A DNA stretch of 64,000 nt from Minisyncoccota bacterium (GCA_018062445.1 JAGOSG010000001.1:122426-186425), one strand, 5' to 3'. Shown: positions 19,125 to 37,079, counted from the first letter of the stretch. Numbers and translations are program-made. The notes: generated from the letters alone by a model not told the origin.

Positions 19125-19131
19125 ACAAAAA

Positions 19132-19236
19132 GTATACCCCGTGAGATATGAAATTTATACTTTGGTCAAAATTATTTTCTTCTGCGAGGATCCAGCACAC
19201 ATCGTACGTAGTGCCTTGCTATCTCATGGGGTATAC
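19132..19236. repeat. about 105-bp element with 16-bp terminal inverted repeats GTATACCCCGTGAGAT / ATCTCATGGGGTATAC (copy 1), directly upstream of the start codon of 17976..19124
   Basis: Seen directly; same arms as 36974..37079, interior unrelated. Confidence 0.6.
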
Positions 19237-19243
19237 CTCGTGA

Positions 19244-19259
19244 GGTACAGGTCTGTACC
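19244..19259. repeat. 16-bp palindrome GGTACAG-GT-CTGTACC
   Basis: Seen directly, adjacent to the element above. Confidence 0.5.
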
Positions 19260-19284
19260 ATTACCCCCGAAAGGATAGAAAAAT

Positions 19285-19330
19285 AGCTGTATAGTATAAA
19301 GTAACGACCGTTACTTTATACTATACAGCT
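19285..19330. repeat. 46-bp hairpin palindrome AGCTGTATAGTATAAAGTAACG-AC-CGTTACTTTATACTATACAGCT (copy 2 of 3)
   Basis: Perfect arms; arm-internal differences from copy 1 are compensatory. Confidence 0.6.
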
Positions 19331-19383
19331 CTAAATACTCATGATACAGGAGGTGCCTCTTACTCTTTTGCTTGTTTCTCTAT

Positions 19384-19905
19384 TTAAGCCTCACCCTGGG
19401 CTAACATGGTGAGTGTACGGGTGCGGTCGTGGTCAAGCTCAACTAAAAGAATCTGTTGCCACACTCCCCTAATCACCTGCCCCCGCTCAATAATAAGCGT
19501 TAGGTAGCTTGGGATGATTAACCCTTGGGCATGGGCATGCCCATTAACGCACTCTTGGCTCACCCCATTCTCGTCAGGTACACACAGATGCGTGTGGCGC
19601 TTCCCTTCAGGATTATTTACATCACGAATATCATTGTGGCCATACGTTTCAGCAGGATGTGCAAAGCGGTCAAGAACTCTTTGCAAATCGGGTATATACC
19701 CAAGGGTTGAGGATGGCCCAATTAAATTTGGTTCGTCCTCATTCACCCATAAACCACAAGTCGTATGGTGTGTCTGAAGTGCAAGTGTGCCTGTCTCTAC
19801 TCCTGAATCTGCAACAAATAAATCAACTTCGGGAGTAATGTTAATAAATTCCAAACGATGCTTCGTTTGATAGGTTAGAGTTTTCGTGACAGCTTTATAG
19901 GACAT
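19384..19905 (-). CDS. yjbQ: YjbQ-family (UPF0047) secondary thiamine-phosphate synthase-like protein
   Basis: ITPEV...TGTLALQTHHTTCGLWVNEDEPNL matches the YjbQ signature. Confidence 0.7.
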   Translation of the reverse strand: MSYKAVTKTLTYQTKHRLEFINITPEVDLFVADSGVETGTLALQTHHTTCGLWVNEDEPNLIGPSSTLGYIPDLQRVLDRFAHPAETYGHNDIRDVNNPEGKRHTHLCVPDENGVSQECVNGHAHAQGLIIPSYLTLIIERGQVIRGVWQQILLVELDHDRTRTLTMLAQGEA

Positions 19906-19967
19906 ATGTATTACACACTAAACCACACCAAATCTCTTTTGGTTTCAATTCATTAAGGAATTTAAGA

Positions 19968-20228
19968 ATGTATAATTCATCTATGCACTGGCAAGATATT
20001 GTTCTCTCGGTTGGTCAATACATATTTGTCATTGCCTTACTCCCTTCCGTGTTGGGAAAAGATAAACCTGCTCTTTCTTCGAGCCTGCTCACGGGCACCG
20101 TGCTTGGAGTTTTTACTGCTGTTTACGCAACCCTCGGTCTATGGAGTTCTACAATTGCCTCAACCTTAGTTACGGCAACATGGTTTTTACTCGCATGGCA
20201 ACAGTACAGAAAAAAAATGAAGAAATAA
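19968..20228 (+). CDS. hypothetical small membrane protein (2 TM)
   Basis: ORF only; hydrophobic. Confidence 0.35.
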   Translation: MYNSSMHWQDIVLSVGQYIFVIALLPSVLGKDKPALSSSLLTGTVLGVFTAVYATLGLWSSTIASTLVTATWFLLAWQQYRKKMKK

Positions 20229-20264
20229 GTTATTACTCCACTCAGCGCACAGTGATTTAAGCAT

Positions 20265-20828
20265 CTATTTCATTAATCCTTCCAGTACTCCTTCAGGAGT
20301 CACTTTTAGAAAAAGCGTTACGCCAACTGATGGCCGTGCAGTCATAGGTTCGCCCTCCTTCCGCTCAGCAAAATTTACATAAAGCTCTTTTGAATCAGCG
20401 TGTATTTCTGTAGTTTGTGGTGCAATCCTGTCTCCTACCAAAAACGCATTCGTGGTTTTGTACCCGTCAGCAGTTTTGAGTGCGACAACGACATAGTAAA
20501 AGAGTCCACTACCTCCAGTGTCTTGTGTGATAAGAAAAGCAACATCATCCATACCATCCCCATTCAAATCACCCTTCGATTCGTTTCCAAAATAGCGTGT
20601 TGTCACCTTTGAAGCAGAACCTGGCACTATAGACACCTCTGAAATGCCCTGTACCAAAACAACTTCATTTCCTTCAATCGTAAAGTGAGTATTTTTCCCA
20701 TCAAAGACAGTAAGATCTTGTGCGGGCACTGTAGACACTACTTCATTACTGCTTCTTGTAAAAAAGAAAACAGCTACGATTGCTACAGCAATAACGACAA
20801 TAAAACTGATGAGTGTTTTTTTATTCAT
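20265..20828 (-). CDS. hypothetical secreted protein
   Basis: N-terminal signal/anchor MNKKTLISFIVVIAVAIVAVFFF; beta-rich. Confidence 0.45.
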   Translation of the reverse strand: MNKKTLISFIVVIAVAIVAVFFFTRSSNEVVSTVPAQDLTVFDGKNTHFTIEGNEVVLVQGISEVSIVPGSASKVTTRYFGNESKGDLNGDGMDDVAFLITQDTGGSGLFYYVVVALKTADGYKTTNAFLVGDRIAPQTTEIHADSKELYVNFAERKEGEPMTARPSVGVTLFLKVTPEGVLEGLMK

Positions 20829-20832
20829 ATAT

Positions 20833-21162
20833 TTACATTATGACCCATTTTCTGGTTACAGAGTCATACTCCGCTATATTCTCCGCCCATCCTCCATCAT
20901 CTACAACCATAATACTAGTCACTAGTGAATCGCTTCCATTCGGAAATGTGCCTTTTCTCTGGTAAATATACTCAGCAATGTCCTTTTCTACTTTCCGAGT
21001 CCCTCTAACCTCTAGGAGATATATTCCATCTTTGTCACGTAATTCTTTTAATATTGTAGGATTTTCGCAATAGGTACTAAGTTTTGAAAGTACTTGCTCT
21101 CGAGTAAGTATACCTTCGAAACCTCTTTCAGTAGCATTATCTTGTGGACCTTCAGTAACCAT
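20833..21162 (-). CDS. hypothetical protein
   Basis: ORF only; 4-nt gap to the previous gene suggests an operon. Confidence 0.4.
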   Translation of the reverse strand: MVTEGPQDNATERGFEGILTREQVLSKLSTYCENPTILKELRDKDGIYLLEVRGTRKVEKDIAEYIYQRKGTFPNGSDSLVTSIMVVDDGGWAENIAEYDSVTRKWVIM

Positions 21163-21171
21163 ATAGAAAAA

Positions 21172-21573
21172 TTAAGAAAGTACTTGGGTGCAAAACGCAC
21201 AACGACGCGCACTTGCAGGTATCTTCGAGAGACACTCTGGGCATTTTTTTGTTGCAGGATCAGCTGGTGTGTCTTTTAGCGCATGCGCGCTGAGTACATT
21301 CATCGGCTTAACCACAAAGAAAAATACTGAACCAGCCACAAGAATGAATGATATAAGAGTATTGATAAAATGGCCGTATTTAAACTGACTACCGTTCAAG
21401 GTAAACACTAATCCGCCAAAATCAGGAACTTTTGCAATTGCAGCTATAAAGGGAGTAAGTAGGTCAGCCACTAAAGCAGTCACGATACTTCCAAAGGCTG
21501 CTCCCACCACGACACCGACTGCCAAATCGACAACATTGCCTCGCAGTAAAAACGCCTTGAATTCATTAAACAT
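21172..21573 (-). CDS. mscL: large-conductance mechanosensitive channel with C-terminal CxxC-x9-CxxC zinc-ribbon tail
   Basis: MFNEFKAFLLRGNVVDLAVGVVVGAAFGSIVTALVADLLTP is near-identical to the MscL TM1 consensus; tail KKCPECLSKIPASARRCAFCTQ. Confidence 0.85.
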   Translation of the reverse strand: MFNEFKAFLLRGNVVDLAVGVVVGAAFGSIVTALVADLLTPFIAAIAKVPDFGGLVFTLNGSQFKYGHFINTLISFILVAGSVFFFVVKPMNVLSAHALKDTPADPATKKCPECLSKIPASARRCAFCTQVLS

Positions 21574-21832
21574 AGAAATTTTGAATAAATAAAACAGATA
21601 CTCGCTGATAATAACAGATTTTTAAGTGCTTTTGTTGCTCAAAGCCCGCGCTCTATGTAAGAGTCTTTTTGAAGACACGGGGAATGCTTGTAATAGTTAT
21701 CGGACATGTACGGCTATGGGAGTACAGTCTTAAAAAAACAATATTATTAGCCATAAAATTGCCACGAGCCATGCAACGCAAATAGCCAGTTAATCAAAAA
21801 CCGGACTCCGAGTTAATAAAGCGTTACAGAAT

Positions 21833-22423
21833 ATGACTGAAACAAAGAAAAAAACAAATAGATCAAAAGAGTCTCAAGAACTCGCCCTGCACTACATGAA
21901 AACACTCGTTGAGGTGGCTCGTGAGTCATTCTTAATTCTTGACTCAAACCTTCGAGTCGTTTCGGCAAATCCAACTTTTTATGAAAACTTTCAAGTCTCT
22001 CCTGAACAAACAGAGAATGTGCTTCTCTATGAACTCGGTAATGGTCAATGGAACATTCCCATCTTAAAGAGTTTGTTAGAAGAAATTCTACCAATGAAAA
22101 AAGTAGTTAAAGACTACGAAGTAAAACACTTATTCCAAAAAATCGGAGAAAAAACAATATTGCTTAATGCTAGGCAAATAGACATTGATACGGCGCACAT
22201 GATTGTCTTGGCAATGGAAGACATTACTGTGAGAAAAGAGCTGGAGCAAAAACTAGCCGAATACACTTCAGAGCTTGAATTAAAGGTGGCAGAGCGCACA
22301 AGAGAGATTGCGGATAGAGTGAGAGACTTGGAATCCTTGAACCAAGTCATGGTTGGGAGAGAATTGAAAATGATAGAATTGAAAAAGGAACTCACTGAAC
22401 TTAGGCTCTCAGCAATAGGATAG
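21833..22423 (+). CDS. PAS-domain protein with C-terminal coiled coil (no kinase domain)
   Basis: PAS-like core followed by a heptad-rich tail; immediately upstream of the histidine kinase. Confidence 0.55.
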   Translation: MTETKKKTNRSKESQELALHYMKTLVEVARESFLILDSNLRVVSANPTFYENFQVSPEQTENVLLYELGNGQWNIPILKSLLEEILPMKKVVKDYEVKHLFQKIGEKTILLNARQIDIDTAHMIVLAMEDITVRKELEQKLAEYTSELELKVAERTREIADRVRDLESLNQVMVGRELKMIELKKELTELRLSAIG

Positions 22424-22433
22424 CTCGAGCTCT

Positions 22434-23678
22434 ATGACAGTAGTCACATCAGACATTCTTATGGATAAAGAATTACTGCACAAAAAAGAACTTGCGAACT
22501 CCCAAGCTGCTCTTCTTAATGTTTTAGACGATCAAAAAAAAGATTCTGAAAAAATACTCAAAAAGAAAGCCGTAGACGAGGCGATACTTGCAAGTATTGG
22601 TGATGGGCTTGTAGTCGTGGATAAGGAAGGAAAGATAACCTATGTGAATCAATCATTTGAAAAAATGCTTGGCTGGTCGTCTAAAGAAGTCTTGGGTAAA
22701 CGCATTGTTGCGGTAGTACCGCGTGAAGATGAAAAAGGAGAAGAGGTTCCCTTTAATGAAAGAATCTTGAACAAGGTACTCCGTGGAGAGGTAGTGGTTA
22801 CCGACCTTACTAACCCTTTCTATTATATTCGGAAAGACAAGACTCGTTTCCCTTCAAGTAGCATCGTTACTTCGATTGTACTTGACGGCGAAATCATTGG
22901 GGTCGTCGAGACATTTCGAGATATCACAAAAGAAAAAGAGATAGATAAGGCAAAAACTGAGTTCGTCTCTCTTGCTTCTCATCAACTTCGTACTCCCCTT
23001 TCTACCATCAATTGGTATACAGAGATGCTTTTAACAGGAGATGTAGGCAAACTAAATGCGGAGCAAGAAAAATACCTCAACGAAGTGTATCGCGGTAATC
23101 AACGCATGGTTGGGCTGGTGAACGCACTCTTGAGTGTCTCTCGCATGGACCTCGGAACCTTCATTTTCGAACCTGAACCAACCGACATTCCCCTACTCGT
23201 TCGAAGTGTGCTCGATGAACAAATGCCTCATATTATCCAAAAAGGTATCACCGTTTTCCCAACATTTGGAACCAACATCCCGCTCATACAGGTTGATCCA
23301 AAACTACTTAGAATGGTAGTGCAAAACCTACTCTCAAATGCTATTAAATACACCCCGGAAAAAGGGAAAATAGACCTCTCACTCACGCTTACAGATGAAA
23401 AAAAATGTCTACTATTCACGATTTCTGATACGGGATACGGCATACCAAAAAACCAACAACACAAAATTTTTCAAAAACTTTTTCGAGCTGACAATGTACG
23501 CGAAAAAGATACCGAAGGCACTGGACTTGGACTCTACATTGCAAAAGCAATCATTGATAACTCTGGAGGGAAGATCTGGTTTGAGTCGCCTGTCTCAAAC
23601 TATATCGAAGGAGAGGAAAATGTAGGCACCACGTTTTATGTCGAGTTGCCATGTAAATTATTAGAAAAGAGTAAATAA
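22434..23678 (+). CDS. PAS-sensor histidine kinase
   Basis: HisKA box FVSLASHQLRTPLSTI; HATPase_c N/G boxes LLSNAIKYT ... DTGYGIP ... GTGLGLYIAKAII. Confidence 0.8.
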   Translation: MTVVTSDILMDKELLHKKELANSQAALLNVLDDQKKDSEKILKKKAVDEAILASIGDGLVVVDKEGKITYVNQSFEKMLGWSSKEVLGKRIVAVVPREDEKGEEVPFNERILNKVLRGEVVVTDLTNPFYYIRKDKTRFPSSSIVTSIVLDGEIIGVVETFRDITKEKEIDKAKTEFVSLASHQLRTPLSTINWYTEMLLTGDVGKLNAEQEKYLNEVYRGNQRMVGLVNALLSVSRMDLGTFIFEPEPTDIPLLVRSVLDEQMPHIIQKGITVFPTFGTNIPLIQVDPKLLRMVVQNLLSNAIKYTPEKGKIDLSLTLTDEKKCLLFTISDTGYGIPKNQQHKIFQKLFRADNVREKDTEGTGLGLYIAKAIIDNSGGKIWFESPVSNYIEGEENVGTTFYVELPCKLLEKSK

Positions 23679-23688
23679 CATCTTCATT

Positions 23689-24156
23689 ATGAATCGCACA
23701 TCAAAAAAAAGCAGAACAATACTAGTGTTAGAGGACGAGCAATCCCTACTCGGCGTTATTAAAGCTAAGCTTGAAAAAGAAGGCATCCGCGTTCTTACAT
23801 CTCGCAGTGTAGAGAAGGCTTTTAGTACTGATCTCAAAAAAAGCAAATCAGGAGGTGTAACCTTGAATAGTGTTAAAACGGCACTCAAACATGTGGAGGA
23901 CTTGGAGCAGGTTGATGCTATTTGGCTCGACCACAATCTTGTAGGCGAAGAAAATGGACTTGATTTCGTGACAAAATTTAAAAGAAATGGGGGGCACTGG
24001 AGTAAGATCCCGATCTTTGTTGTATCAAATACCGCAGATCCCGATTTAGTTAAAACCTACATACGACTTGGAATAAATAAATACTATGTGAAAGCAGAAA
24101 ATCGCCTCGATACCATTGTTGCAGACATACACTCCTCTCTCGCTCATAGTACGTAA
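23689..24156 (+). CDS. stand-alone response-regulator receiver domain protein (atypical)
   Basis: ILVLEDEQSLLG ... IWLDHNL receiver-like pattern; no output domain. Confidence 0.5.
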   Translation: MNRTSKKSRTILVLEDEQSLLGVIKAKLEKEGIRVLTSRSVEKAFSTDLKKSKSGGVTLNSVKTALKHVEDLEQVDAIWLDHNLVGEENGLDFVTKFKRNGGHWSKIPIFVVSNTADPDLVKTYIRLGINKYYVKAENRLDTIVADIHSSLAHST

Positions 24157-24159
24157 GTA

Positions 24160-24561
24160 ATGAAACCAGAAACTAAAAAGAACACGATTCTCATTGTTGA
24201 GGATGAGATTTCACTCCGCAATGCACTCCGTGACAAATTCACACGGGAAGGTTTTATTGTATTTGATGCCAAAGACGGCGAAGTAGGGCTCGCCACCGCC
24301 CTTCGTGAACAACCTCAATTGATTCTTCTTGACCTCATGATGCCGAAGATGGACGGCATGACCATGCTTCATAAGCTACGCCCTGAAAATGAATGGAGCA
24401 AAAGTGTACCGGTTATACTTCTTACAAACTTTGGTGCTGATGACAAAGCAACAATGAAAGAAATAGAGGAAGACACATCGGCTTACTATTTGGTAAAATC
24501 AAATTGGTCTATGGACCAAATGGTAGAAAAAGCTAGAGAAACAATCGCTTTAACCATATAA
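24160..24561 (+). CDS. CheY-like single-domain response regulator
   Basis: ILIVEDEISLRN ... LILLDLMMPKMDGMTML with canonical receiver Asp and Lys positions; 133 aa, no output domain. Confidence 0.75.
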   Translation: MKPETKKNTILIVEDEISLRNALRDKFTREGFIVFDAKDGEVGLATALREQPQLILLDLMMPKMDGMTMLHKLRPENEWSKSVPVILLTNFGADDKATMKEIEEDTSAYYLVKSNWSMDQMVEKARETIALTI

Positions 24562-24580
24562 ATAGAGACTCACGCATGAT

Positions 24581-25039
24581 ATGCACCTAACCCCAGAACC
24601 TACAGAGCGAGGGTCCAAAAATCCTCTCCTCTACTATCTTGTTGCGGTGCCACTAACTTTGCTTATGGTAATTCCTGTTGTCATCGCAGACATCTTTTTT
24701 GAAATATACCACCAAATAGCCTTCCCTATATACGGGATACCTCGTGTAAAGCGATCTCGCTACATCCGCATTACCGATAGAGAAAAACTTCCGTATCTTT
24801 CATGGTTTGAAAAATTAAACTGCGCCTACTGCGGATATGTGAATGGGTGGTTGCATTATGCGTCAACCATTGCAGGAAGAACCGAGAGTCATTTTTGCGC
24901 AATAGCCCATCTGGAAACGCGTGGCTATATTCCATCGGAACACGAAAAATCTTTTATGAAATATGGTGATGATTCTGCACTTAAGAAGCGTTACTCCTCA
25001 CACAATTTGAAGTACGAAGATACAGGGTCTAATTCATAA
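24581..25039 (+). CDS. hypothetical membrane protein with CAYCGYVNGW Cys motif
   Basis: ORF only; one N-terminal TM. Confidence 0.4.
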   Translation: MHLTPEPTERGSKNPLLYYLVAVPLTLLMVIPVVIADIFFEIYHQIAFPIYGIPRVKRSRYIRITDREKLPYLSWFEKLNCAYCGYVNGWLHYASTIAGRTESHFCAIAHLETRGYIPSEHEKSFMKYGDDSALKKRYSSHNLKYEDTGSNS

Positions 25040-25765
25040 CCTTGGTTCGCGATATTCTCTTGCTTGAATTTCAACAAGCGTACCGGAAGGCACTGAGTCA
25101 AAAAGCTCTACAACGTCTTTATTCCTCATTCGAATACATCCGTGTGAGACAGGACTCCCAATAAGACCCTCCTCCTGTGTTCCATGTATGTAGATATAGC
25201 GAGCGTGCGAATCAACGCCTTCTCCTTTATTTATGTTTGGCTCTTCACCTTGAAGCCACATAATGCGCGTGGTTACTACATCTTCAGAGGTGTCGATGGG
25301 ATTTTTTATGATATCAATCACACGATCAGTCTGCTCGCGTGCAACAAACACCGCCCCTTCAGGTGCTCCATCCCCTATCTTTTCTTTTATCCTATGAGTT
25401 CCCCACGGCGTTCTCTCGCTTCCTTTTTGTGTACCGACACCATTTTTACTTGTTGACACTGGATATATTTTTATAATCTTGTTGTTTTGTACAACATAGA
25501 GTTCCTGTTTTTCTGGATTCACAACAATGGCATTCTGCTCGGGTTGGAGTCCAAATTGTGATGTTAATTTCTGAACGCTCTCGGTAATATCTTTTAATGC
25601 CTCCTCCTTTCGAGCATCTTCGTTTGCTGTACGCACTACTTTCTCACCAACAACTCCCACAACAACAGCTCCAGCTGTCGCTAGACCCCAACCAAGAAAC
25701 CTTCTTCTGTTAACTCCTTTCTTATCAAGAGACTCTTCACTTGGTGTAAAAGAATTTTTATCCAT
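25034..25765 (-). CDS. L,D-transpeptidase (YkuD domain) with Tat-like signal
   Basis: HGTQEEGLIGSPVSHGCIRMRNKDV catalytic His/Cys motif; RRRFLGWGLATAGA twin-arginine-like signal. Start trimmed to MDKNSF to avoid overlapping pyk. Confidence 0.7.
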   Translation of the reverse strand: MDKNSFTPSEESLDKKGVNRRRFLGWGLATAGAVVVGVVGEKVVRTANEDARKEEALKDITESVQKLTSQFGLQPEQNAIVVNPEKQELYVVQNNKIIKIYPVSTSKNGVGTQKGSERTPWGTHRIKEKIGDGAPEGAVFVAREQTDRVIDIIKNPIDTSEDVVTTRIMWLQGEEPNINKGEGVDSHARYIYIHGTQEEGLIGSPVSHGCIRMRNKDVVELFDSVPSGTLVEIQAREYREPRL

Positions 25766-25772
25766 ACGACTA

Positions 25773-27191: not shown

Positions 27192-27261
27192 GATTTCTGT
27201 CTGTTAATATAAAACAAAATAGTCTCTTTGTCCATTGAGTGGCAACCTCGGCAAATAAAAA

Positions 27262-27693
27262 TCAAGGACGTCGCTTCCCTTTCGCAAGCATCTGGCAGGC
27301 TTTCATAATTTGAAGCCCGCGCGCTTCTGATTCTGTAGCTTTCTCTACCCAACTTACAAAATCTCTCCGCTCATTTGGTGTAAGGCTACCCCAAGTAGCC
27401 TTTGCCTTAGGACTTGCTCCCAGAGCTTTGTAGAGATTCATTGGCACGAGCGCATAACAGCAAGGGCGCCTTTTTCCAGAGAGGAGCCTTGAGGGAATAC
27501 TCAGGGCTCGACGTTTGCGCGTCTCAACTTGTTTTGCCGACTCTACCCAACTAATAAAATCTCTTCGTGCGATTGGCGTAAGGCTATCCCACAACATCTG
27601 CACTTTCGAACTCGTCCTGATAACTTTTACAATGTCCGTTGGTGTCTTAGGCTCTAGTTCTCTTCTACCTGACTTAGCACTTACTTTGTTCAT
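27262..27693 (-). CDS. YdeI/OmpD-associated (DUF1801-like) family protein, internally duplicated
   Basis: Two tandem copies of W..LTP..RRDF(I/V)SWVE.A....R.RR. Confidence 0.5.
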   Translation of the reverse strand: MNKVSAKSGRRELEPKTPTDIVKVIRTSSKVQMLWDSLTPIARRDFISWVESAKQVETRKRRALSIPSRLLSGKRRPCCYALVPMNLYKALGASPKAKATWGSLTPNERRDFVSWVEKATESEARGLQIMKACQMLAKGKRRP

Positions 27694-27723
27694 ACTTTTA
27701 TTCTACCTTAAGCAGTCAGAACA

Positions 27724-27768: not shown

Positions 27769-27814
27769 TATACATAGGATCAACTACCACCCCTTCCCAG
27801 AAAGCTTCCTCTAC

Positions 27815-28381: not shown

Positions 28382-28808
28382 AATGATCGTGCGGTAATCG
28401 CTTATATTAATTAGTGTGAATTATAATTTTCACGGTTTTTTGTTAAGGAGGTACTATACTCTCAACGTGTAGCCTGTCAAATGCAAGCTGTGCATGCGCC
28501 GTCACTTATAGAAACCTTTCCCGAATTCACATCTAGGAAAACAAAAGTACCCCTTAAGTTAAGGCGCTCCGACCTTTTCTTTTTTAAGAAAAACTTATCG
28601 CAAAGGACACAGGCCAGCTTCACACATGACACACTTCGGAGAGTGTCTGCACAAACATGCACAAGTATCCACTGCCTCCACATTTTTTAGCACTCCTTCC
28701 ATAGATTGCATTGTTCCATGATTGAACGGAAATGTCAATAGGTGTATTTCGCTTCACCTAGAGACCGTATTAGTAACACAAGTGATGAAGTACATCCTTG
28801 CTGATATA

Positions 28809-30449
28809 TCAGGAAAAATGTAAGTTCGGCCATTCGTCTTCGAGTTTTGAAACAAGAAAGTCGCCGGATACACGCTCCGGGAAAATGACATAGTCAGCAC
28901 CGGCATCTCGAAGTACTTGCTCCTGATCGGCTTCGTCGGTACGCACCACGATTTGCGCCTTCACATTACTTATCCGGCAGGCATCAAGAAGTGCGAGGTT
29001 GTCTCTTGTCCCACCTGCTGTTGAAATAATGAGATGGGCCGTATTGAGCTGCAGGTTCGCCAGTATTTCAGAGTCACTCACATCGCCATAGAGCGCATGG
29101 TAGCCTTGCGCACGCAAGCGTCGCACCGCCGTAGGATTATAGTCAAGAACGAGCACTTCTATCTTCGCCTTTTTCAAATACTCTATGACTACGGTGCCCA
29201 CCCTGTCAGCGCCAACAACGACAACATGTCCAGACAGCGGTGGAAGAATCGCATCGGGCAATACATCAACCGCTTCTTTTCTCTGGAATCGTGCGACGAA
29301 GGGTTTCATGAATGTGTAGATAGACTCAGAATGATTCATAAGTGTTGACGAGAAGATTATAGAAAGCACAGCAGAGCCGGCAATAATTGCAAGTGCGGAC
29401 TCCGAGGCGAAACCATGTTCGACGGCCAACAGGACAACAATCAGAGAGAACTCGGATACCTGCGTCATGTTTAGAGACGTCTGGAAAAGAGTGTGTTTGC
29501 GGAATTTGAAGAAACTTAAACCAACCAGATATGCAAATGGTTTCATAAAAAGAGCGAGCGCGGTGAATCCGAAGATTATCGGCAGAGAATTTGTGATGCC
29601 CGCAAGGTCAACTTGGGAGCCGATATATATGAAGAATAATGCAACAAAGAAATCTCTGATTGGTTTTACTTTAGCCTGAATCTGAATCTGATACGGGGAA
29701 GAAGCGAGCGCAACACCTGCCAAAAATGCACCGATGACAACCGAAAAGCCAGCCAAAACCGCAACAGAGGTAAAGATAAAGCACCATGTAATAGCGGCGA
29801 GGAACAATAACTCGACAGACTTCGCCATCTTATTAAACAGGAACGGCAGTACGAAACGAGATATGAGGAACGCTGCACTAATCAAAGCTATTGCCTTAAC
29901 CGTAAATATAAGGAGGGGCATAAGAATTGCAGTGCTCCACCCGAAAGAAATAAGATTTCTAGTTATAGCAACCATCACGATAATGGCCACGAGGTCTTCA
30001 ACAAGGAGAATGCCGATGGAAAGTTTCCCATATAAAGACGCTGTATCGCGTCTTTCAGAAAGCATCTTAGCGATAACAATCGTCGAAGCGAACGCGAGCG
30101 AGATGCCTAAGATTGCCGCCTCAGTTCCAGAGAAACCAAAAAACGTTGCCAACGTAAAACCGGCGACAGAAGAGACTACAATTTGGAAAAGCGTCGCTAC
30201 GATAATAGGGCGCCCTAGAGAGCGAATCTCACTCAAATTGAGCTCCATCCCAATCAAAAACAACACGAACGCTATACCTATTTCAGGAAGGGTGTGTAAG
30301 ACAACTGAATCAGAAAGATTATATGCAGAAAGCGCCACTCCAGCTAAGAGATACGCCATAACCAAAGGAAGTCGGAATCGCATTGCTGTGTATCCAATAA
30401 CACAAGCCACCGAAAGCATAATGGCAAGCTCCAAAAAAACGCTGTTCAT
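28809..30449 (-). CDS. monovalent cation:proton antiporter (CPA2, Kef-type) with C-terminal RCK/TrkA-N domain
   Basis: About 12 TM helices plus VVVVGADRVGTVVIEYLKK...LVLDYNP Rossmann RCK domain. Confidence 0.8.
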   Translation of the reverse strand: MNSVFLELAIMLSVACVIGYTAMRFRLPLVMAYLLAGVALSAYNLSDSVVLHTLPEIGIAFVLFLIGMELNLSEIRSLGRPIIVATLFQIVVSSVAGFTLATFFGFSGTEAAILGISLAFASTIVIAKMLSERRDTASLYGKLSIGILLVEDLVAIIVMVAITRNLISFGWSTAILMPLLIFTVKAIALISAAFLISRFVLPFLFNKMAKSVELLFLAAITWCFIFTSVAVLAGFSVVIGAFLAGVALASSPYQIQIQAKVKPIRDFFVALFFIYIGSQVDLAGITNSLPIIFGFTALALFMKPFAYLVGLSFFKFRKHTLFQTSLNMTQVSEFSLIVVLLAVEHGFASESALAIIAGSAVLSIIFSSTLMNHSESIYTFMKPFVARFQRKEAVDVLPDAILPPLSGHVVVVGADRVGTVVIEYLKKAKIEVLVLDYNPTAVRRLRAQGYHALYGDVSDSEILANLQLNTAHLIISTAGGTRDNLALLDACRISNVKAQIVVRTDEADQEQVLRDAGADYVIFPERVSGDFLVSKLEDEWPNLHFS

Positions 30450-30542
30450 AGAAAGAATTATACCCTGAACAAAGCTCTATTAATACCTAGAGATATAAAA
30501 AGGAGTTTAGATTAACTCATTCGTCATTGGAGCGAACGTGGG

Positions 30543-30668
30543 CTACTTTCTTTTCTTTTTGCTTGCTTTTGTGGCAAGCATCACTTTCTTTGCCGCAAGG
30601 CGTTTTGCAGTTTTATGAGGACTTTTGTGTTTCTTGAGTGAACTTACGCCGTGGCTGTTATTTCCCAT
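30543..30668 (-). CDS. hypothetical small basic protein (41 aa, MGNNSHGVSSLKKHKSPHKTAKRLAAKKVMLATKASKKKRK), not in ORF track
   Basis: Hand translation; ribosomal-protein-like composition, no family recognised. Confidence 0.3.
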   Translation of the reverse strand: MGNNSHGVSSLKKHKSPHKTAKRLAAKKVMLATKASKKKRK

Positions 30669-30865
30669 ATGTATTTTATTAGTGAGTATACCCCATTGTA
30701 CTACCTGCGGAGCGTTCGAGCGAAATGAATCCCGATCTTGTATCGGGATTCATTTCCGAGGATGCGAACGCAGGCAACCTTAGTTACCTGCGGAGCATCC
30801 GAACAAAACAAGGCGGGGCTCCACTTACTGGATGAGGTTAAAGCCTGTTGGCAAAGCAGTTCCTT

Positions 30866-31372
30866 TTATGAGTGCCTACTATGTAAAATCTTTTCCGAAT
30901 AAGCAAGCATTATCGAAGAGAAAAGGAATACGACATGAATGATAACTTGCCACATCACATTATTGAGATTTTGATTTTCGATGTTTATAAAAATTTGCAA
31001 CAAGTGGATTCCTGATATGCCAACCAGCGCACCTGCTAATTTAACTTTAAGCGTTCCCGCATCTACCTTTGACAACCACTCAGGCTTGTCTTTGTGAGTG
31101 TCAATTTCAAGTCGACTTACAAAGGTTGAGTAACCACCGATGATAACCATAATAAGAAGGTTGGCTACCATAGTGAAGTCAATAAGGGTAAGTATGCCGA
31201 GCATTAATACTGACTCAGATATATGTCCTATCTCAATAAATAAGTGAAGGAGTTCGGTGAAAAATTTGTATGAATACAGGACACCGCCCAAAACCAACCC
31301 AACATAGAGTGGTGCTTGTAGCCAACGGCTTGCGAATATAAGCTTTTCCAAGATTATCTCTGCTTTTTTCAT
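30866..31372 (-). CDS. yqhA: UPF0114 (YqhA) family membrane protein
   Basis: ILEKLIFASRWLQAPLYVGLVLGG matches the YqhA N-terminal consensus. Confidence 0.65.
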   Translation of the reverse strand: MKKAEIILEKLIFASRWLQAPLYVGLVLGGVLYSYKFFTELLHLFIEIGHISESVLMLGILTLIDFTMVANLLIMVIIGGYSTFVSRLEIDTHKDKPEWLSKVDAGTLKVKLAGALVGISGIHLLQIFINIENQNLNNVMWQVIIHVVFLFSSIMLAYSEKILHSRHS

Positions 31373-31483
31373 ATCAATAAGAGTATAGCCTATATTGGAA
31401 AAATATTGTCAGTCACGATTTCGGGCTTTGCTCCGCTTGCAAGCCGTGTTAGTTGCACACGGCTTCCCCGCTGTCGCCTCGAG

Positions 31484-31524
31484 AAAAATGAAAAACCCGC
31501 CAACAAGGCGGGATTCATTTTCTC
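31484..31524. terminator. bidirectional intrinsic terminator AATGAAAAACCCGCC-aacaa-GGCGGGATTCATTTT
   Basis: Stem-loop flanked by an A-run and a T-run. Confidence 0.6.
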
Positions 31525-31526
31525 TC

Positions 31527-31632
31527 TCGGCTCCGCGGGTAGGACTCGCCTCTCGCACTGCTGTGCTCGAAACCTACGGTCGCTCTTCGCTCCCTGCGGC
31601 CCGCGGTTCGAGTCCGTACACACGCGGAATGC
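31527..31632 (-). ncRNA. degenerate tRNA-like element (tRNA-Asn paralog remnant); starts with a 20-nt direct repeat of the tRNA-Asn 3-prime end
   Basis: GGCTCCGCGGGTAGGACTCG (31527-31546) vs TGCTCCGCGGGTAGGACTCG at the tRNA 3-prime end (19/20). Reverse strand shows GTAGG..CCTAC T-stem, CCGCGGA acceptor strand and a 5-prime TCCGCG, but the T-loop region is expanded to about 29 nt and no anticodon arm folds. Confidence 0.3.
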
Positions 31633-31640
31633 ATAAGTCT

Positions 31641-31670
31641 AAAAAAGCCCCCATGCATGGGGGTATTTTT
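31641..31670. terminator. bidirectional terminator AAAAAAGCCCCCATGCATGGGGGTATTTTT
   Basis: GC stem flanked by A- and T-runs, just 3-prime of tRNA-Asn. Confidence 0.6.
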
Positions 31671-31676
31671 ATACTT

Positions 31677-31750
31677 TGCTCCGCGGGTAGGACTCGAACC
31701 TACAACCAACTCCTTAACAGGGAGCTGCTCTACCATTGAGCTACCGCGGA
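31677..31750 (-). tRNA. tRNA-Asn (anticodon GUU)
   Basis: Reverse strand TCCGCGG-TA-GCTC-AATGGT-AGAGC-A-GCTCC-CTGTTAA-GGAGT-TGGTT-GTAGG-TTCGAGT-CCTAC-CCGCGGA-G gives a full cloverleaf; CCA not encoded. Confidence 0.7.
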
Positions 31751-32019
31751 ATAATATTGTGTCGTCTTACGACAACACTTATTCTGCGGAGCTCAAGAAT
31801 TGAGCTACTTCCGGAGGAGCCGAGGGTCATGGAAAGTTTACTTTCATATGACCGAGACGACGACTGGAAGAAAGCCTAGCTTCTAGGCTTACCGCGGAAT
31901 ACATTCCTAAAAAAAGAACATACACCCGCAGTCAAACAGTGACCGCGGAATGTCTCACTATTCTACCCAAAATAGGCATTTACGCCAGAGCCAGCCCGTG
32001 CGCCTGCCTCCCTTCCCTC

Positions 32020-32544
32020 TCAATCTTTTGCCAACTGCCTTTGCAATTCATCTTCTATTGCATCGCTCTCGAGTGTCTTAAGCATTTCCTGTAGCTCTGT
32101 GTCTTTGGAGATATCAATACCACTCTTTTCAAGAAGAAGTGTCTGTAGGTAAATCAGCTTTGTAATTTCACTTTCAGCGTATGTGTTGATATAGAGTTCC
32201 ACCTCTTCTCGAAGTTCGGCAATTTTAGTTTCGCGATTTTGGGATATAAGAACGACAATGGCAAGGAAAATCGCTTCGAGTGACACTACCATAGTAAGAA
32301 GACCGAAAGGAAAAGGATCACGCACGGGAATATGTGGAAATACGCCAGAATTCCATGTAATCCAAAACAAAAAGAAAATTCCATTGAGCCCAAGGAAAAA
32401 AACAGTGCCGAACGATTCGGTTAACCAATCCGCGATCTTATCGGCTAGATTTCTTTTAGCATTTGCCCGTGCCTTAAAACTTTGAATCGCAGTTCGCCTA
32501 CGCGACACTCTTTCATGATGAGATGAATGTTTTAGATTGCTCAC
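32020..32544 (-). CDS. DUF1003 family membrane protein
   Basis: VVSLEAIFLAIVVLISQNRE matches the DUF1003 core (SLEAIFLSTFVLISQNR). Confidence 0.6.
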   Translation of the reverse strand: MSNLKHSSHHERVSRRRTAIQSFKARANAKRNLADKIADWLTESFGTVFFLGLNGIFFLFWITWNSGVFPHIPVRDPFPFGLLTMVVSLEAIFLAIVVLISQNRETKIAELREEVELYINTYAESEITKLIYLQTLLLEKSGIDISKDTELQEMLKTLESDAIEDELQRQLAKD

Positions 32545-32556
32545 GAATGATTTGTA

Positions 32557-32838
32557 TTACCGATGAAGCCAATTCCAGATTTTTGCGAAGATAAATCCAA
32601 CTACCGCACCCATCACAAAAGTCATGAGCACCAAGGAGAGCGAAGCGACGAGATTAAAGGTGTCTACAAGATACACTGCACGGATCATGTGTAGCCAGAA
32701 AATAAAATCAAGTACTGCTTGTGCTACCCCGAGTGCTACCAGTGCTGACCAAAGAACATGAACGCCCCCAAAGAAGACGCCGAGAGCAAGTGCTGTTTTT
32801 TTAGGATTAAGCTGTGTCATAAAGATAGATATATACAA
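32557..32838 (-). CDS. hypothetical small membrane protein (3 TM)
   Basis: ORF only. Confidence 0.4.
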   Translation of the reverse strand: MYISIFMTQLNPKKTALALGVFFGGVHVLWSALVALGVAQAVLDFIFWLHMIRAVYLVDTFNLVASLSLVLMTFVMGAVVGFIFAKIWNWLHR

Positions 32839-32865
32839 TCTTATAAAGCTCTTTTAATTATACTC

Positions 32866-33879
32866 CTATTCTCCCGTGTACTGCCCGAGAGTTGCGAGTG
32901 AGTTCATATGAGCACGCTTAATAAATACCTCCTGTGCAGAAGCCACATTCTCAGCTTTTCCAGCCCAGAGTTTCAACGCACTTGCCTGAAGTGCCCGACC
33001 ATAGGAGAACGAAAGCTTCCAAGGAAAGCTCCCTAGCTTATTCATGGCATCAAGATTTGCTGTTGCCTCTATCTCACTCTGACCTCCGGAGAGAAATACC
33101 ACACCAGGGAGATTTAATGGAAGTATCTGCTTAAATAATTCAGTGGTTGCTTTAGCAACTTCTTCGGGTGTTGCCACAACACCACCCTCCTTTCCAGGGA
33201 CGATCATGTTTGGTTTCAGAATCATTCCTTCAATCGCTACACCTGCATTATTCAATTCCTCAAAAACGGCTTTGAGTGTGCGTTCCGTAACTGCTCGACA
33301 CACCTCTTGTGTGTTTGACCAATCCATCAATACTTCAGGCTCAACGATAGGAACTATTCCTACTTCCTGACACAGGAGTGCGTACGAGGCGAGTTGTTTT
33401 GCATTCTCTCGAATCGCACTATCTGTTGGTATACCCTCTCCGATAGTGATAACACCCCGCCATTTTGCAAAGCGTGCTCCGAGCGCTACATATTCAGGAA
33501 GTCTTGCCTTCAATCCCTCCAAGCCTTTTGTTACTGTTTCAGCGCTATCACCAATCTTCTCTACTCCTTCGTCAACCTTAATACCCGCAATCACACCACT
33601 GTCGTTCAATACTTTCACTAAAGTACGCCCGTCTGAAGCATTTTGCCGAATAGTTTCATCAAATAAAATGACACCAGAAATATACTTGCCTATATCTGGT
33701 GCAGTAAATAACATCTCACGATATGCTCGGCGATTATCTTCGGTTACTGGAATACCGAGTTTCTCAAACTTCTTATTAATATTTCCAAAACTCTCGTCCG
33801 CTGCGAGAATCCCTTTACTGGGAGCAACCATAGCAAGTGCTGTTTCTTTTAATTTTGCTCGTGTTTCGTCTGTAAGCAT
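32866..33879 (-). CDS. fba: fructose-bisphosphate aldolase, class I
   Basis: GILAADESFGNINKKFEKLGIPVTEDNRRAYREMLFTAP aligns with the class I (Schiff-base) aldolase N-terminus. Confidence 0.8.
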   Translation of the reverse strand: MLTDETRAKLKETALAMVAPSKGILAADESFGNINKKFEKLGIPVTEDNRRAYREMLFTAPDIGKYISGVILFDETIRQNASDGRTLVKVLNDSGVIAGIKVDEGVEKIGDSAETVTKGLEGLKARLPEYVALGARFAKWRGVITIGEGIPTDSAIRENAKQLASYALLCQEVGIVPIVEPEVLMDWSNTQEVCRAVTERTLKAVFEELNNAGVAIEGMILKPNMIVPGKEGGVVATPEEVAKATTELFKQILPLNLPGVVFLSGGQSEIEATANLDAMNKLGSFPWKLSFSYGRALQASALKLWAGKAENVASAQEVFIKRAHMNSLATLGQYTGE

Positions 33880-33897
33880 ATGTTAAAAAGTTACTTT

Positions 33898-34860
33898 TTA
33901 TGATGAATAAAAATCTCCTCGTGGGTCACGCCTATGGTGCGTTGTCATGTAACGCACCGTGCCTGACTTTCCACGAATGACTAATGAGTGCGTAACCGCT
34001 TTACTCTTCGTGAAGCGAACGCCATCCAAAAGCGGACCATCAATGACACCTGTTGCAGTAAAGGTGAAATCATCACTCTTCACTAAATCGTTAGTGCTAT
34101 AAATTTTCTTTTCATTCAAACCTGCTTTTTTAACTAAATTTCTCTGATGTTCATCTTTTGATTTAAATCTACATAACAATTCTCCGCCAAGTGCTTTAAC
34201 GGCGGCGGCGGCAAGTACTGACTCAGCAGAAGCGCCAATACCCATAAGAATGTCGATTCCGGAATCAAACATTGATGGCGCAATGGCACCCGCAACATCA
34301 CCATCAGTAATAAGACGAACCCTGGCACCAGATGCACGAATTTCTTTTATAAGTTGCGTATGCCTCTCCCTATCAAGAACAACGACAGTAATATCACCTA
34401 CCTTTTTACCAAGTGCTTTTGCAACTTTTTTAATATTCACCGATACACTGGCGTCAAGACGAATTACTTTTCGAGCTTTTGGTCCTACCGCAATCTTCTC
34501 CATATAGGTGTCAGGCGCTCCAAGCAATGTGCCTTTGGGGCCAGCCACAATAACAGAGAGTGCGTTGTATCTTCCGTATGCCACGCTATCGGTGCATTCA
34601 AGCGGATCAACTGCAATATCCAAGACTGGCTTCCCTCCTTTACCTAGTTTCTCACCTGTATACAGCTCTGGGGCTTCGTCTTTACTTCCCTCTCCAATAA
34701 CAACACGCCCAGTAAAATTAATTTCATTAAATGCAGTGCGCATCGCGTCCACGGCGGCGCCGTCAGCTTTGAGTTTGTCACCTTTACCAATCCAATGTCC
34801 TGAAGCAACAGCAGCAGCTTCAGTTACTCGCACGAATTCAAGAGCTAAGTTTCTGTCCAT
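33898..34860 (-). CDS. glpX: fructose-1,6-bisphosphatase class II (GlpX)
   Basis: MDRNLALEFVRVTEAAAVASGHWIGKGDKLKADGAAVDAMR GlpX N-terminus; 320 aa. Adjacent to fba (gluconeogenic pair). Confidence 0.85.
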   Translation of the reverse strand: MDRNLALEFVRVTEAAAVASGHWIGKGDKLKADGAAVDAMRTAFNEINFTGRVVIGEGSKDEAPELYTGEKLGKGGKPVLDIAVDPLECTDSVAYGRYNALSVIVAGPKGTLLGAPDTYMEKIAVGPKARKVIRLDASVSVNIKKVAKALGKKVGDITVVVLDRERHTQLIKEIRASGARVRLITDGDVAGAIAPSMFDSGIDILMGIGASAESVLAAAAVKALGGELLCRFKSKDEHQRNLVKKAGLNEKKIYSTNDLVKSDDFTFTATGVIDGPLLDGVRFTKSKAVTHSLVIRGKSGTVRYMTTHHRRDPRGDFYSS

Positions 34861-34866
34861 AATAAA

Positions 34867-34903
34867 TCAGCTTTCAGGTTATAGGTTCCAGGTTCCAGCT
34901 TTT
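34867..34903. repeat. dispersed short-repeat family, copy R6 (CAGCTTTCAGGTTATAGGTTCCAGGTTCCAGCTTTT)
   Basis: Seen directly, upstream of glpX. Confidence 0.6.
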
Positions 34904-34951
34904 AAATAAATATGAAAAAGGGACACGGGAATCATACCACTCACCTCACAG

Positions 34952-36202
34952 TTAAGTAACAACGAGGCGCTTCGGCAAAACAAATAAAACTGCCCATGCA
35001 AACAGCGCCAGAACCATACCTACAACAAAGGGCATCTGAAGGCCAAAAAAGCCAGCACCAACGCCTGCAACCACAGGAGCCACTCCTTGTGCCAGAGCTT
35101 GAAGTGAGCCGTTAATTCCCATTGCTGCACCTTGCTTTTCACCTGACACTCCCTTACTTATAAGAGCTGCGAGATTTGCAACAGAAAGCCCATTACCTAC
35201 AGCAAGCAATGGTAATACTACATATAAGAGCGACGCAGAGGGTACAAACCCATACGCAAAAATAGCTGCTCCAACCAAAATAAGCGATACGCGGAGAATT
35301 GCTCGCTCATTATATTGTTTTGTAACAATACGGAGCACGACTACTTGCGTGAATATAATCCATGCTCCAGTAATACCAAAAAATATACCGACTGCGCTCG
35401 CAGTAAATCCAAAACGACTTACTAGCAATATTCCAATGAATGCCGTAAAGAATCCAAAACCAAGCTGAAGCAAAAATGATGAAAGATACACGGGACGCGC
35501 ATCTACATCTCTAAACGCAGTTTGAATGTTCCGAACACCTTTAAGAAAATGGAAATCATGAGAACCATCTCCCTTTCTTGTTTCAGGAAAGAATAGAGAA
35601 ATAAACATCAAATTCACAACACCAAGCGCACCCGCAAGCCAAAAAGGCGCAGAAGCAAACCCTGTGAGATGTAAAATCCAACCTCCAAGAATAGGACCAA
35701 TGATAAACCCGAGACCAAATGCTGCACCAACGAGCCCAAAGTTCTTTGCTCTGTCCTTCGGTTCGGTTACATCAGCAATAGCGGCTTGGGCTATTGAAAA
35801 ATTAGCGGCAGCAAGCCCTGCGACTGCACGAGACAAGAAAAGAAGTGGCAATGAACCAATGACAATGGCGAAGCCAAACATAAGTTGAGCAACGGCGAGT
35901 ACACCAACACCAAATGTGAGTAAGCGCTTCCGCCCATACGCATCAGAAAATTCTCCGAGGATCGGCGCTGCTATGAACTGCATGAGTCCAAAAATGCCAG
36001 TGAGCAAACCTGCAATGAGGTACTGCGCGCTCGTGCCAAATCCATGAAGAAGAAACGAGGGTGACGAAGGATCAGTCAGAATGATAGGAATAATAGGAAA
36101 TATCATCCCGATGCCGATCATGTCGAGAAGTAATGTAACGAAAAGTATAGGTAGAACTCGCCTTGTTTTTACAACTGACATCAAAAGAGTATAGCAAATC
36201 AC
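34952..36202 (-). CDS. MFS transporter
   Basis: 12-TM, 416 aa; GR(K/R)-type loop motif. Confidence 0.75.
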   Translation of the reverse strand: MICYTLLMSVVKTRRVLPILFVTLLLDMIGIGMIFPIIPIILTDPSSPSFLLHGFGTSAQYLIAGLLTGIFGLMQFIAAPILGEFSDAYGRKRLLTFGVGVLAVAQLMFGFAIVIGSLPLLFLSRAVAGLAAANFSIAQAAIADVTEPKDRAKNFGLVGAAFGLGFIIGPILGGWILHLTGFASAPFWLAGALGVVNLMFISLFFPETRKGDGSHDFHFLKGVRNIQTAFRDVDARPVYLSSFLLQLGFGFFTAFIGILLVSRFGFTASAVGIFFGITGAWIIFTQVVVLRIVTKQYNERAILRVSLILVGAAIFAYGFVPSASLLYVVLPLLAVGNGLSVANLAALISKGVSGEKQGAAMGINGSLQALAQGVAPVVAGVGAGFFGLQMPFVVGMVLALFAWAVLFVLPKRLVVT

Positions 36203-36220
36203 CCTTTATACTGGAGAAGT

Positions 36221-36847
36221 ATGTTTGACCTTACAAAGCAGGAACTCGCCACCTTAAAAAAACTCTCAACTCCAATTAAGATTCAGGATTTTTTAGATAC
36301 CCTTCCTATCAACTACGAAAAGAAAGGAGAAACACATATGTCGCCACGAAGGGTACTTCGTGAGAAAAAAGCACACTGCATTGAAGGAGCGCTCTTAGCA
36401 GCTACGGCACTGTGGATCAATGGTGAAGAACCCCTCCTTATGGACCTTACTGCAGCGCCCGAAGATGATGACCATATTGTTGCTCTCTATAAAAAAAATG
36501 GCTACTGGGGTGCAATTTCAAAAACAAATCATGCAACGCTCCGTTTTAGAGACCCTATATACAAAACACTTCGTGAACTCGCACTCTCCTACTTTCACGA
36601 ATGGTTTCTCGATGAGAACGGACTCAAGATGCTCCGAAGTTATTCAAAACCACTTAATTTGAAACGACTCGGCACCGCTTGGGTTACCGCAGAGGAAGAT
36701 TTGTGGTACCTCGATGAACATTTAGATACCTTGCCACATTTTTCACTTCTACCAAGGGAAAATAAAAAACACATCCGCCCTGCAGACAAAATGGAGAGGA
36801 CTGCTGGCAACCTTCGTGAGTGGAATAAGAAAAATAAAAGAACATAG
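36221..36847 (+). CDS. transglutaminase-like cysteine peptidase superfamily protein
   Basis: AHCIEGALLAATALWINGEEP (Cys motif) and DHIVALYKKNGYWGAIS (His motif) resemble the transglutaminase-core Cys-His pair. Confidence 0.45.
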   Translation: MFDLTKQELATLKKLSTPIKIQDFLDTLPINYEKKGETHMSPRRVLREKKAHCIEGALLAATALWINGEEPLLMDLTAAPEDDDHIVALYKKNGYWGAISKTNHATLRFRDPIYKTLRELALSYFHEWFLDENGLKMLRSYSKPLNLKRLGTAWVTAEEDLWYLDEHLDTLPHFSLLPRENKKHIRPADKMERTAGNLREWNKKNKRT

Positions 36848-36892
36848 AAAACACACCGAACAACACCATGGCCTATTCTTCAATTATGATTT

Positions 36893-36927
36893 ATATATCC
36901 CTAATTCGTGCGAATTAGGGATATATA
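36893..36927. repeat. 16-bp-stem inverted repeat TATATATCCCTAATTCG-tg-CGAATTAGGGATATATA (possible weak terminator)
   Basis: Seen directly; no T-run follows, so terminator function is uncertain. Confidence 0.35.
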
Positions 36928-36973
36928 AAAATGCAGAGATGTGGATACATATAGGATTGGTTTTTTGTTGCAT

Positions 36974-37079
36974 GTATACCCCGTGAGATGGTAGATCAGA
37001 GAATACGCACTAGCGAAAATTTTGATGTGATAAAAATTCTATCCTTTTCCACACGAACATAGTATCTCATGGGGTATAC
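36974..37079. repeat. about 105-bp element with 16-bp terminal inverted repeats GTATACCCCGTGAGAT / ATCTCATGGGGTATAC (copy 2), ending 9 nt before the ATG of 37089..37394
   Basis: Seen directly; arms identical to copy 1, interior unrelated. Confidence 0.6.

Follow-up and report, generated by a model that had tools for sequence, protein, structure and literature searches.

Two paired-arm elements and their family

The window analysed here, a 64,000-nt stretch of DNA from a Minisyncoccota bacterium whose positions are counted from its first letter, carries two copies of a short element with inverted arms, copy 1 at 19132-19236 and copy 2 at 36974-37079, lying ahead of the genes for a 382-aa secreted protein and a 101-aa protein, respectively (Table 1). 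A scan of the window placed the 16-mer GTATACCCCGTGAGAT on the plus strand at 19132-19147 and 36974-36989; at 19221-19236 and 37064-37079 it recurs as the reverse complement, differing at one base (CATGGGG in place of CACGGGG). A tolerance of three mismatches gave six matches against 0.18 expected, and none of 100 shuffled sequences reached six. The preliminary description of this DNA had proposed paired elements of about 105 bp with conserved 16-bp arms, unrelated interiors of about 72 bp and an end less than 10 nt from an ATG. All of these points held, with the conserved arm corrected to 17 nt (TATCTCAYGGGGTATAC read outward in both copies); the interiors of 71 and 72 nt show no relation in either orientation, and the arm end stands 7 nt from the ATG in copy 1 and 9 nt in copy 2.

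The wider distribution of the element was surveyed in two ways. Paired arms were sought in one genome per species, with the arms 60-90 bp apart and a total length of 90-120 bp allowed, a scan that forced 13 of the 17 arm positions. It returned 51 genome loci with observed total lengths of 95-112 bp, all from Parcubacteria-type metagenome-assembled genomes (MAGs; Kaiser-, Nomura- and Komeilibacteria, Paceibacterota); some loci were labelled Saccharibacteria, a label that looks unreliable because they are near-identical to Parcubacteria MAGs. The four unforced arm positions proved likewise conserved (T/A, A, Y, G). A less biased single-arm scan of metagenomes matched 120 loci, among which about 30 or more paired elements were recognized; here about 80% of true arms are paired, and the partner's 12-mer CCCCRTGAGATA is kept better than the partner's outer hexamer. 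In viral contigs, arm matches occurred at chance level only, and AC then followed in 4 of 63. At least nine copies are present in the 1.06-Mb MAG VMGC01, and two in the 64-kb window.

In total, 88 unique non-coding elements of 45-123 bp were compared, sharing 12-bp terminal repeats CCCCRTGAGATA / TATCTCAYGGGG (17 bp with GTATAC), which agrees with the 10-15 bp or more expected of a MITE (miniature inverted-repeat transposable element). They fall into three discrete length classes (45-48, 68-74 and 95-123 bp; modes 47, 69 and 106) whose interiors measure about 12, 35 or 72 bp. Arm sequence hardly varies among more than 170 copies, and no interior column, examined for a -35 or other motif, exceeded 0.33 bit. 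One fixed base separates the two arms in 70/88 elements, giving one G-type and one A-type arm, a kind of difference often seen between a transposable element's left and right ends; both arms are G-type in the other 18/88. The variable stem position gives G.T, A.C or G-C, never A-T. An all-versus-all comparison of interiors matched only orthologues, tandem duplicates and three cross-genome pairs, with alignable interiors in five orthologous pairs. Elements at orthologous promoters may differ in interior, size class or G/A polarity (L008 and L073 at PrfB, L042 and L129, L013 and L147; L numbers designate the loci compared).

Elements are duplicated exactly in tandem, in full or for their first part only, at L008 2048-2271, L043 392-678 and L018 1528-1662, one of the duplications in L043 flanking a run of N; either slippage at the arms really took place or the assembly mishandled the repeat. 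A DnaA box-like sequence, TTATCCAC / TATCCACA, occurs in the interiors of elements between divergent holB-like and DUF1003 genes (L031 1382-1451, L034 4718-4788, L036 5938-6009 and L051 4332-4401), with a further copy just outside the L031 element.

Promoter position and alleles with and without the element

Almost no gene in the window has a Shine-Dalgarno site, and in many first genes the ATG follows TATAAT, TATACT or TACAAT at a distance of 6-9 nt. Across all loci, the peak of TAnnnT lies 6 nt ahead of start codons, and promoters without arms read TRTGn-TATAMT at that same distance from the ATG (6-9 nt for most first genes of the window and L001-L175), Shine-Dalgarno sites and any clear -35 box being absent. 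Since TATAMT is so placed and Shine-Dalgarno sites are nearly absent, leaderless initiation would be the rule here. TATAC of the arm and the next base together make up the -10 hexamer: gene-proximal arms present TAnnnT in 78% of cases (TATACT 65, TATAGT 12, TATAAT 6) and distal arms in 22%, the latter mostly reading TATACC. The distance between the arm's end and the start codon clusters sharply, with its mode at 7 nt. A gene start lies within 16 nt of 63/88 unique elements, on both sides in 16 of the elements, and only 1/88 stands between two gene ends. For genes next to elements, transcription would start at about the ATG, so placed that the arms are probably upstream promoter DNA and not leader RNA. 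The flanked genes are diverse housekeeping genes, including those for RecJ, DnaE, PheS, SerS, PrfB, SecD and L32; their 112 proteins represent 98 Pfam families with no recurrent regulator gene, so that no regulon is formed.

Filled and empty alleles were found at the copy 2 site. L241, which is the nearest relative for the copy 2 gene and has a 97% identical 101-aa protein, is empty (...ggattggttattttttatagcatGTATACtagctactcATG / ...gcatGTATACtagctactcATG) with a single GTATAC, while the window and L046 are filled (gcatGTATAC[100 bp]GTATACtacccgctcATG), the filled allele reading ...ggattggtt..ttgttgcatGTATAC[CCCGTGAGAT-interior-TATCTCATGGG GTATAC]tacccgctcATG. L242, L243 and L244 (orthologues 77, 72 and 65% identical) are empty as well, each with GTATACT 6-8 nt before the ATG. 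Relative to L241-L244, copy 2 is a clean 100-bp insertion with GTATAC on both sides, a sequence (core TATA) that is single in these relatives and doubled in the window and in L046. Relatives that match the flanks but lack the element, named in the preliminary description as the mark of pure mobile insertion, therefore exist and keep a single GTATAC. A second set was found at an L32-like gene, empty in L010 (ctgTATAATcctcgcactATG) and L018 and filled in L147 (ctgTCTA[CCCC...GGGG]TATAATcctgcgaatATG) and L013.

The ends of further elements vary as CTATAC...GTATAG, GTATAC...GTATAAT and GTATAC...GTATAGT, which shows that the outermost bases come from the target, so that the duplicated core is TATA and the terminal repeat 12 bp; a 6-bp direct duplication of GTATAC as such was rejected on the same variants. 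Whole elements move between gene contexts, as those with homologous interiors stand beside non-homologous genes in three pairs (copy 1/L026, 73%; L063/L077, 86%; L158/L168, 81%). Tandem elements share one GTATAC, which creates a 28-bp palindrome, TATCTCAYGGGGTATACCCCRTGAGATA; a perfect outer half of it adjoins 15/90 distal arms, and a decayed outer half several more.

Both copies are best explained, with moderate confidence, as members of a MITE-like mobile element family of Parcubacteria that inserts in the TATA of -10 boxes and rebuilds the box. The MITE reading offered in the preliminary description is thereby supported by the empty sites, the second filled and empty set and the recurrence of whole elements beside unrelated genes; its picture of an element repeatedly landing at gene starts stands as to mobile insertion but not as to luck, the target being TATA, usually within a GTATAC -10 box. 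The element consists of 12-bp terminal inverted repeats (CCCCRTGAGATA ... TATCTCAYGGGG) around an unconstrained interior, flanked by duplicated TATA that usually lies in the palindrome GTATAC. It would land in the TATA of the -10 box of leaderless genes because TATA is mostly found there. On duplication of TATA the original downstream bases (C, A or G, then T) would stay in place, rebuilding the -10 hexamer at the gene-proximal end behind the element's GGGG, and the gene would keep a working promoter 7-9 nt upstream of the ATG. The arms would be recognized by a putative transposase or recombinase and held under selection by that enzyme or another conserved protein. The sequences suggest conservative (cut-and-paste) movement of many old single-copy lineages, as well as in-place selection on the arms by a putative arm-reading protein.

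Parcubacteria, which are uncultivated and ultra-small members of the candidate phyla radiation, have tiny, streamlined genomes with almost no known regulatory or mobile-DNA biology. The element family is common across the group and marks roughly one in twenty promoters, and most first genes of operons would start leaderless, relying solely on an extended -10 box. By rebuilding the most critical promoter box, a mobile element able to reside in it would make promoter regions hot spots of exchange between genes and lineages. The perfect arms, set against unique interiors, point to a putative protein reading the 12-bp sequence at numerous promoters; for a group without genetics it might serve as a tool and marker.

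The surroundings of the two copies

The module containing copy 1 (19128-19339) is 73% identical to L026, where it stands ahead of a different gene, PheS. Orthologues of the 382-aa protein are preceded by the proximal arm only in L052 (90% identity) and L054 (76%), by a decayed arm in L239 (94%) and L240 (78%), and by GTATACT only in L053 (59%); in L245 (96%) an arm remnant is fused behind another gene. The window and L052 become homologous again precisely where the proximal arm has its inner edge and at a hairpin repeat of 44 bp, and the 131 window nt between hairpin and proximal arm, comprising the third arm, the distal arm and the interior, match the L026 PheS module. The simplest history would be that an old insertion lost its distal half and that a full element was then restored by ectopic exchange via the hairpin repeat and the arm. 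Together with 19220-19236, the decayed third arm makes up an imperfect palindrome of 28 bp, such as is seen where tandem elements join. A 16-bp palindrome earlier noticed beside copy 1 is indeed present, as a 7-2-7 inverted repeat at 19244-19259 overlapping the decayed arm, but it is not conserved in the homologous L026 module.

Table 1. Positions of the two elements, their parts and the adjoining features in the window
Feature	Position	Strand	Remarks
382-aa secreted protein gene, downstream of copy 1	17976..19124	-	
-10 hexamer TATACT of the 382-aa gene	19131..19136	-	arm end plus one flanking T; ATG (19124-19122) 6 nt on
Copy 1, long-class element, 105 bp	19132..19236	.	GTATAC + CCCGTGAGATA, 71-nt interior, TATCTCATGGG + GTATAC
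Copy 1 gene-proximal terminal repeat CCCCGTGAGATA, G-type	19137..19148	+	
Copy 1 interior, 71 nt	19149..19219	.	no conserved columns, no excess folding; homologous only to L026 interior
Copy 1 distal terminal repeat TATCTCATGGGG, A-type	19220..19231	+	followed by TATACC, not a -10 hexamer
Decayed third arm GTATACCTCGTGAGGTA, abutting copy 1	19231..19247	+	
Perfect hairpin after UPF0047 gene	19284..19335	.	second repeat family; one anchor of the exchanged upstream module
Copy 2, long-class element, 106 bp	36974..37079	.	also present in L046
Copy 2 distal terminal repeat CCCCGTGAGATG, G-type	36979..36990	+	last base departs from consensus A
Copy 2 interior, 72 nt	36991..37062	.	98.6% identity to L046 (69 aligned nt); unrelated to every other interior
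Copy 2 gene-proximal terminal repeat TATCTCATGGGG, A-type	37063..37074	+	
-10 hexamer TATACT of the 101-aa gene	37075..37080	+	hexamer and downstream flank same as L241 empty site
101-aa gene, downstream of copy 2	37089..37394	+	

The 44-bp perfect hairpin, CTGTATAGTATAAWKTAACGNYCGTTAMWTTATACTATACAG, belongs to a second repeat family with further copies at 10923-10971 and 41752-41795, each just past a gene end. [quoted passage not shown] The region upstream of the 382-aa gene (19384-19905) is rearranged in every relative examined (L052, L054, L239 and L245), with a variably present UPF0047/YjbQ gene and, in some, an inserted SnoaL-like gene, the arm forming the constant boundary.

Beside copy 2, a LexA-like protein with a Peptidase_S24 domain and a weak LexA DNA-binding match is encoded on the minus strand at 37403-37969. 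Its gene has a canonical CGAACgttcGTTCG SOS box at about 37984-37997, adjoining its TATACT -10 box, and classical SOS autoregulation seems to be present in this Parcubacterium. The space between the 101-aa and LexA-like genes differs by an indel, L046 (2069-2598) being about 530 bp longer than the window (37381-37403), and more distant relatives have an open reading frame of 125-129 aa there (L242 1309-1698; L244 1315-1692). The 101-aa protein shares 97% identity with that of the WC880 MAG and 87% with that of Greene0714_7, to which the flanking DNA is nevertheless 97.6% identical. Such mosaic ancestry at 37089-37394 suggests recombination, with a breakpoint near the element.

Short tandem repeats of the AAGCTGGAAGCTG / AACCTGGAACCT type, a motif distinct from the element arms, lie directly upstream of three genes at about 7386-7425, 9411-9450 and 34861-34900 (starts 7426 plus, 9451 plus and 34860 minus), and a similar GCTATAAGCT repeat precedes the LemA gene in L024.

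Competing explanations and known systems

A number of observations weigh against the MITE-like reading. Only two filled and empty sets were found, precise deletion could also make empty sites, and the distal half of copy 1 looks like ectopic exchange rather than simple insertion. No transposase or recombinase gene was found beside the elements or in the window, where RpoD (61295-62584) and housekeeping genes of ordinary kinds are encoded, and no autonomous copy came to light. The internal sequence that MITE copies share is missing, as no interior pair within a genome matched among 88 unique interiors, nine of them sampled from one 1.06-Mb genome; the length classes are discrete without any common sequence; and elements with two A-type arms are absent (0/88 against 14 expected, p ~6e-10). 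The same arms occur in hosts whose orthologous proteins are only 52-62% identical, with fully diverged interiors. Neutral decay of old insertions cannot explain such invariance, so that in-place selection or another mechanism is needed.

The same invariance favours an account in which the arms are operators of a conserved host DNA-binding global regulator, two inverted 12-bp boxes, one immediately ahead of the -10 box and the other about 24, 47 or 84 bp away, allowing cooperative binding or looping at leaderless promoters. We regard it as unlikely, although the pairing of most true arms, the discrete spacing classes, the box at -24 to -13 of a real promoter and the presence of a G-type arm in every element, compatible with a strong site paired with a weaker one, all agree with it. 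The flanked genes form no coherent regulon, the sites are near-invariant and not degenerate, and occupancy varies between close relatives; those nearest at the copy 1 gene lack the distal arm, and the proximal arm decays. Alleles with a clean insertion have the two arms together with TATA duplicated, entire elements move from gene to gene, the three spacings have no common helical phase, the interiors no 10-11 bp periodicity, and the LexA-like protein beside copy 2 has its own canonical box, CGAAC-N4-GTTCG. Operator arms could nevertheless have been seeded by a mobile element and later co-opted, like the binding sites of domesticated transposases. Far less credit is due to the translational riboregulator of the preliminary description, in which the element serves as a 5' leader whose paired arms hide a GGGG ribosome-binding site; this we consider extremely improbable. 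The arms can form a 17-bp stem, and whole-element folds reach z-scores of -3.3 to -5.5 for which the arms alone are responsible, the interiors folding no better than shuffles. However, the -10 box, 6-7 nt ahead of the ATG, is formed by the arm end, and the genome is almost without Shine-Dalgarno sites, so that the arms are probably not transcribed. In addition, arm type, and with it the strand capable of G.U pairing, is not linked to gene direction (A 20, G 16), both flanking genes are served in 16 elements, the variable stem position is never A-U although A-U would pair, and no Rfam family matched.

Another account takes the arms as sites of a site-specific recombinase instead of a transposase, short cassettes being integrated, excised, inverted and swapped at GTATAC boxes. 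It is very unlikely but is kept in play by the tandem junction, which equals that of a circularized element: TATCTCAYGGG-GTATAC-CCCRTGAGATA, with an 11-6-11 arrangement like a tyrosine recombinase's core site of the dif/lox kind, which has two inverted arms of 11-13 bp about a centre of 6-8 bp. A strand-specific hairpin (G.T on one strand, A.C on the other) might be involved, as with integron attC or CTX-phage attP. The palindrome at tandem junctions, its perfect or decayed outer halves at distal arms, the common core present at both junctions and once in the empty site, the breaks in homology exactly at the arm edges, the flipped G/A polarity at orthologous promoters (L013 and L147, L014 and L026) and an interior constrained in length only are all in keeping with such sites. 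The 11-6-11 palindrome is present only at tandem junctions or as decayed outer halves. On the other hand, no recombinase gene was seen in the window or in the neighbourhood of any element, circles as small as 40-100 bp are sterically disfavoured, RYYYAAC and GTTRRRY, the integron core motifs, and cassette arrays are absent, and none of the five alignable orthologous pairs has an inverted interior. A related and decidedly unlikely proposal is that the arms are recognition sites of a putative conserved, possibly domesticated recombinase or transposase that shuffles fixed-length promoter-upstream cassettes at leaderless -10 boxes. If true, the system would act on promoters as integrons act on genes, inserting, excising, inverting and swapping interiors of about 12, 35 and 72 bp, and it would explain both the perfect arms with unique interiors and the different cassettes at orthologous promoters.

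Several further candidates were tried and rejected. A LexA/SOS operator is contradicted by the separate SOS box of the LexA-like gene and by flanked genes that are not repair genes, and the outward position beside the ATG does not agree with an inward-reading, sigma-32-like CCCCAT -10 box. ARAGORN and Rfam gave only one tRNA-Asn, elsewhere in the window, which disposes of a tRNA-like or other known RNA. For the interiors, a DNA wrapping or looping signal was dismissed, as WW periodicity of 10-11 bp is lacking and AT content is the same in proximal and distal halves, and so was a structured interior, folding energy being equal to that of shuffles. The interiors are not copies of nearby DNA, and CRISPR-like captured spacers were rejected because 53 sampled interiors (3.4 kb concatenated) matched none of 50,697 phage records and viral-contig arms stayed at chance. 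A tie between arm polarity and replication direction is refuted by L005, with both polarities within 1.5 kb.

In the literature searched there was no report of the arm sequence, of MITEs in the candidate phyla radiation (CPR) or of leaderless promoters in CPR. Like bacterial MITEs as generally defined (PMC11602168), the Parcubacteria elements are small and non-coding, end in inverted repeats, duplicate their target, are present in several copies per genome and are polymorphic in presence or absence. They differ in having no interior family consensus, no known partner transposase, and arm conservation far beyond that of usual MITE copies. With REPs, bacterial interspersed mosaic elements (BIMEs) and REP doublets (REPINs) they share short conserved inverted repeats paired at preferred spacings, two slightly different types, tandem clusters and less conserved spacers. 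In contrast, REPs are species-specific, dependent on REP-associated tyrosine transposases (RAYTs) and located mainly after genes or between convergent genes, whereas the Parcubacteria elements prefer gene starts (63/88, against 1/88 between gene ends) and are common to distant hosts. Integron attC and the folded attP of CTX phage are similar in their conserved inverted ends, variable but length-limited centre and mismatch-made strand asymmetry. Unlike attC, the elements end in GTATACCCC ... GGGGTATAC, have other core motifs and no integrase, and stand before genes, carrying a promoter box, singly or in tandems of two or three between housekeeping genes instead of in a cassette array. The piggyBac-type elements have a 4-bp palindromic target (TTAA), precise excision and ends starting CCC; resemblance to piggyBac or IS1380 is a lead only. 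Putative mobile promoters, homologous upstream regions before unrelated genes, have been described as promoter reuse in prokaryotes (PMC3575422). They are defined by similarity only, while the elements described here show a defined structure, target and duplication.

In operation, the Parcubacteria family appears to come closest to the Neisseria Correia elements, which duplicate TA at their target and have ends able to make up a full -10 box. Correia copies have a conserved interior and belong to one genus, whereas every interior here is unique, without consensus, and the arms are common across Parcubacteria MAGs; the target is TATA or GTATAC in a leaderless -10 box, and the arms are unlike the Correia repeat. 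Correia elements (CREE/NEMIS) are small inverted-repeat elements just upstream of genes, with outward promoters, that can invert in place (PMC10969869). Both families comprise non-coding elements of about 100-150 bp, in more than one length class, with terminal inverted repeats, which lie mostly just upstream of genes and carry outward promoter ends.

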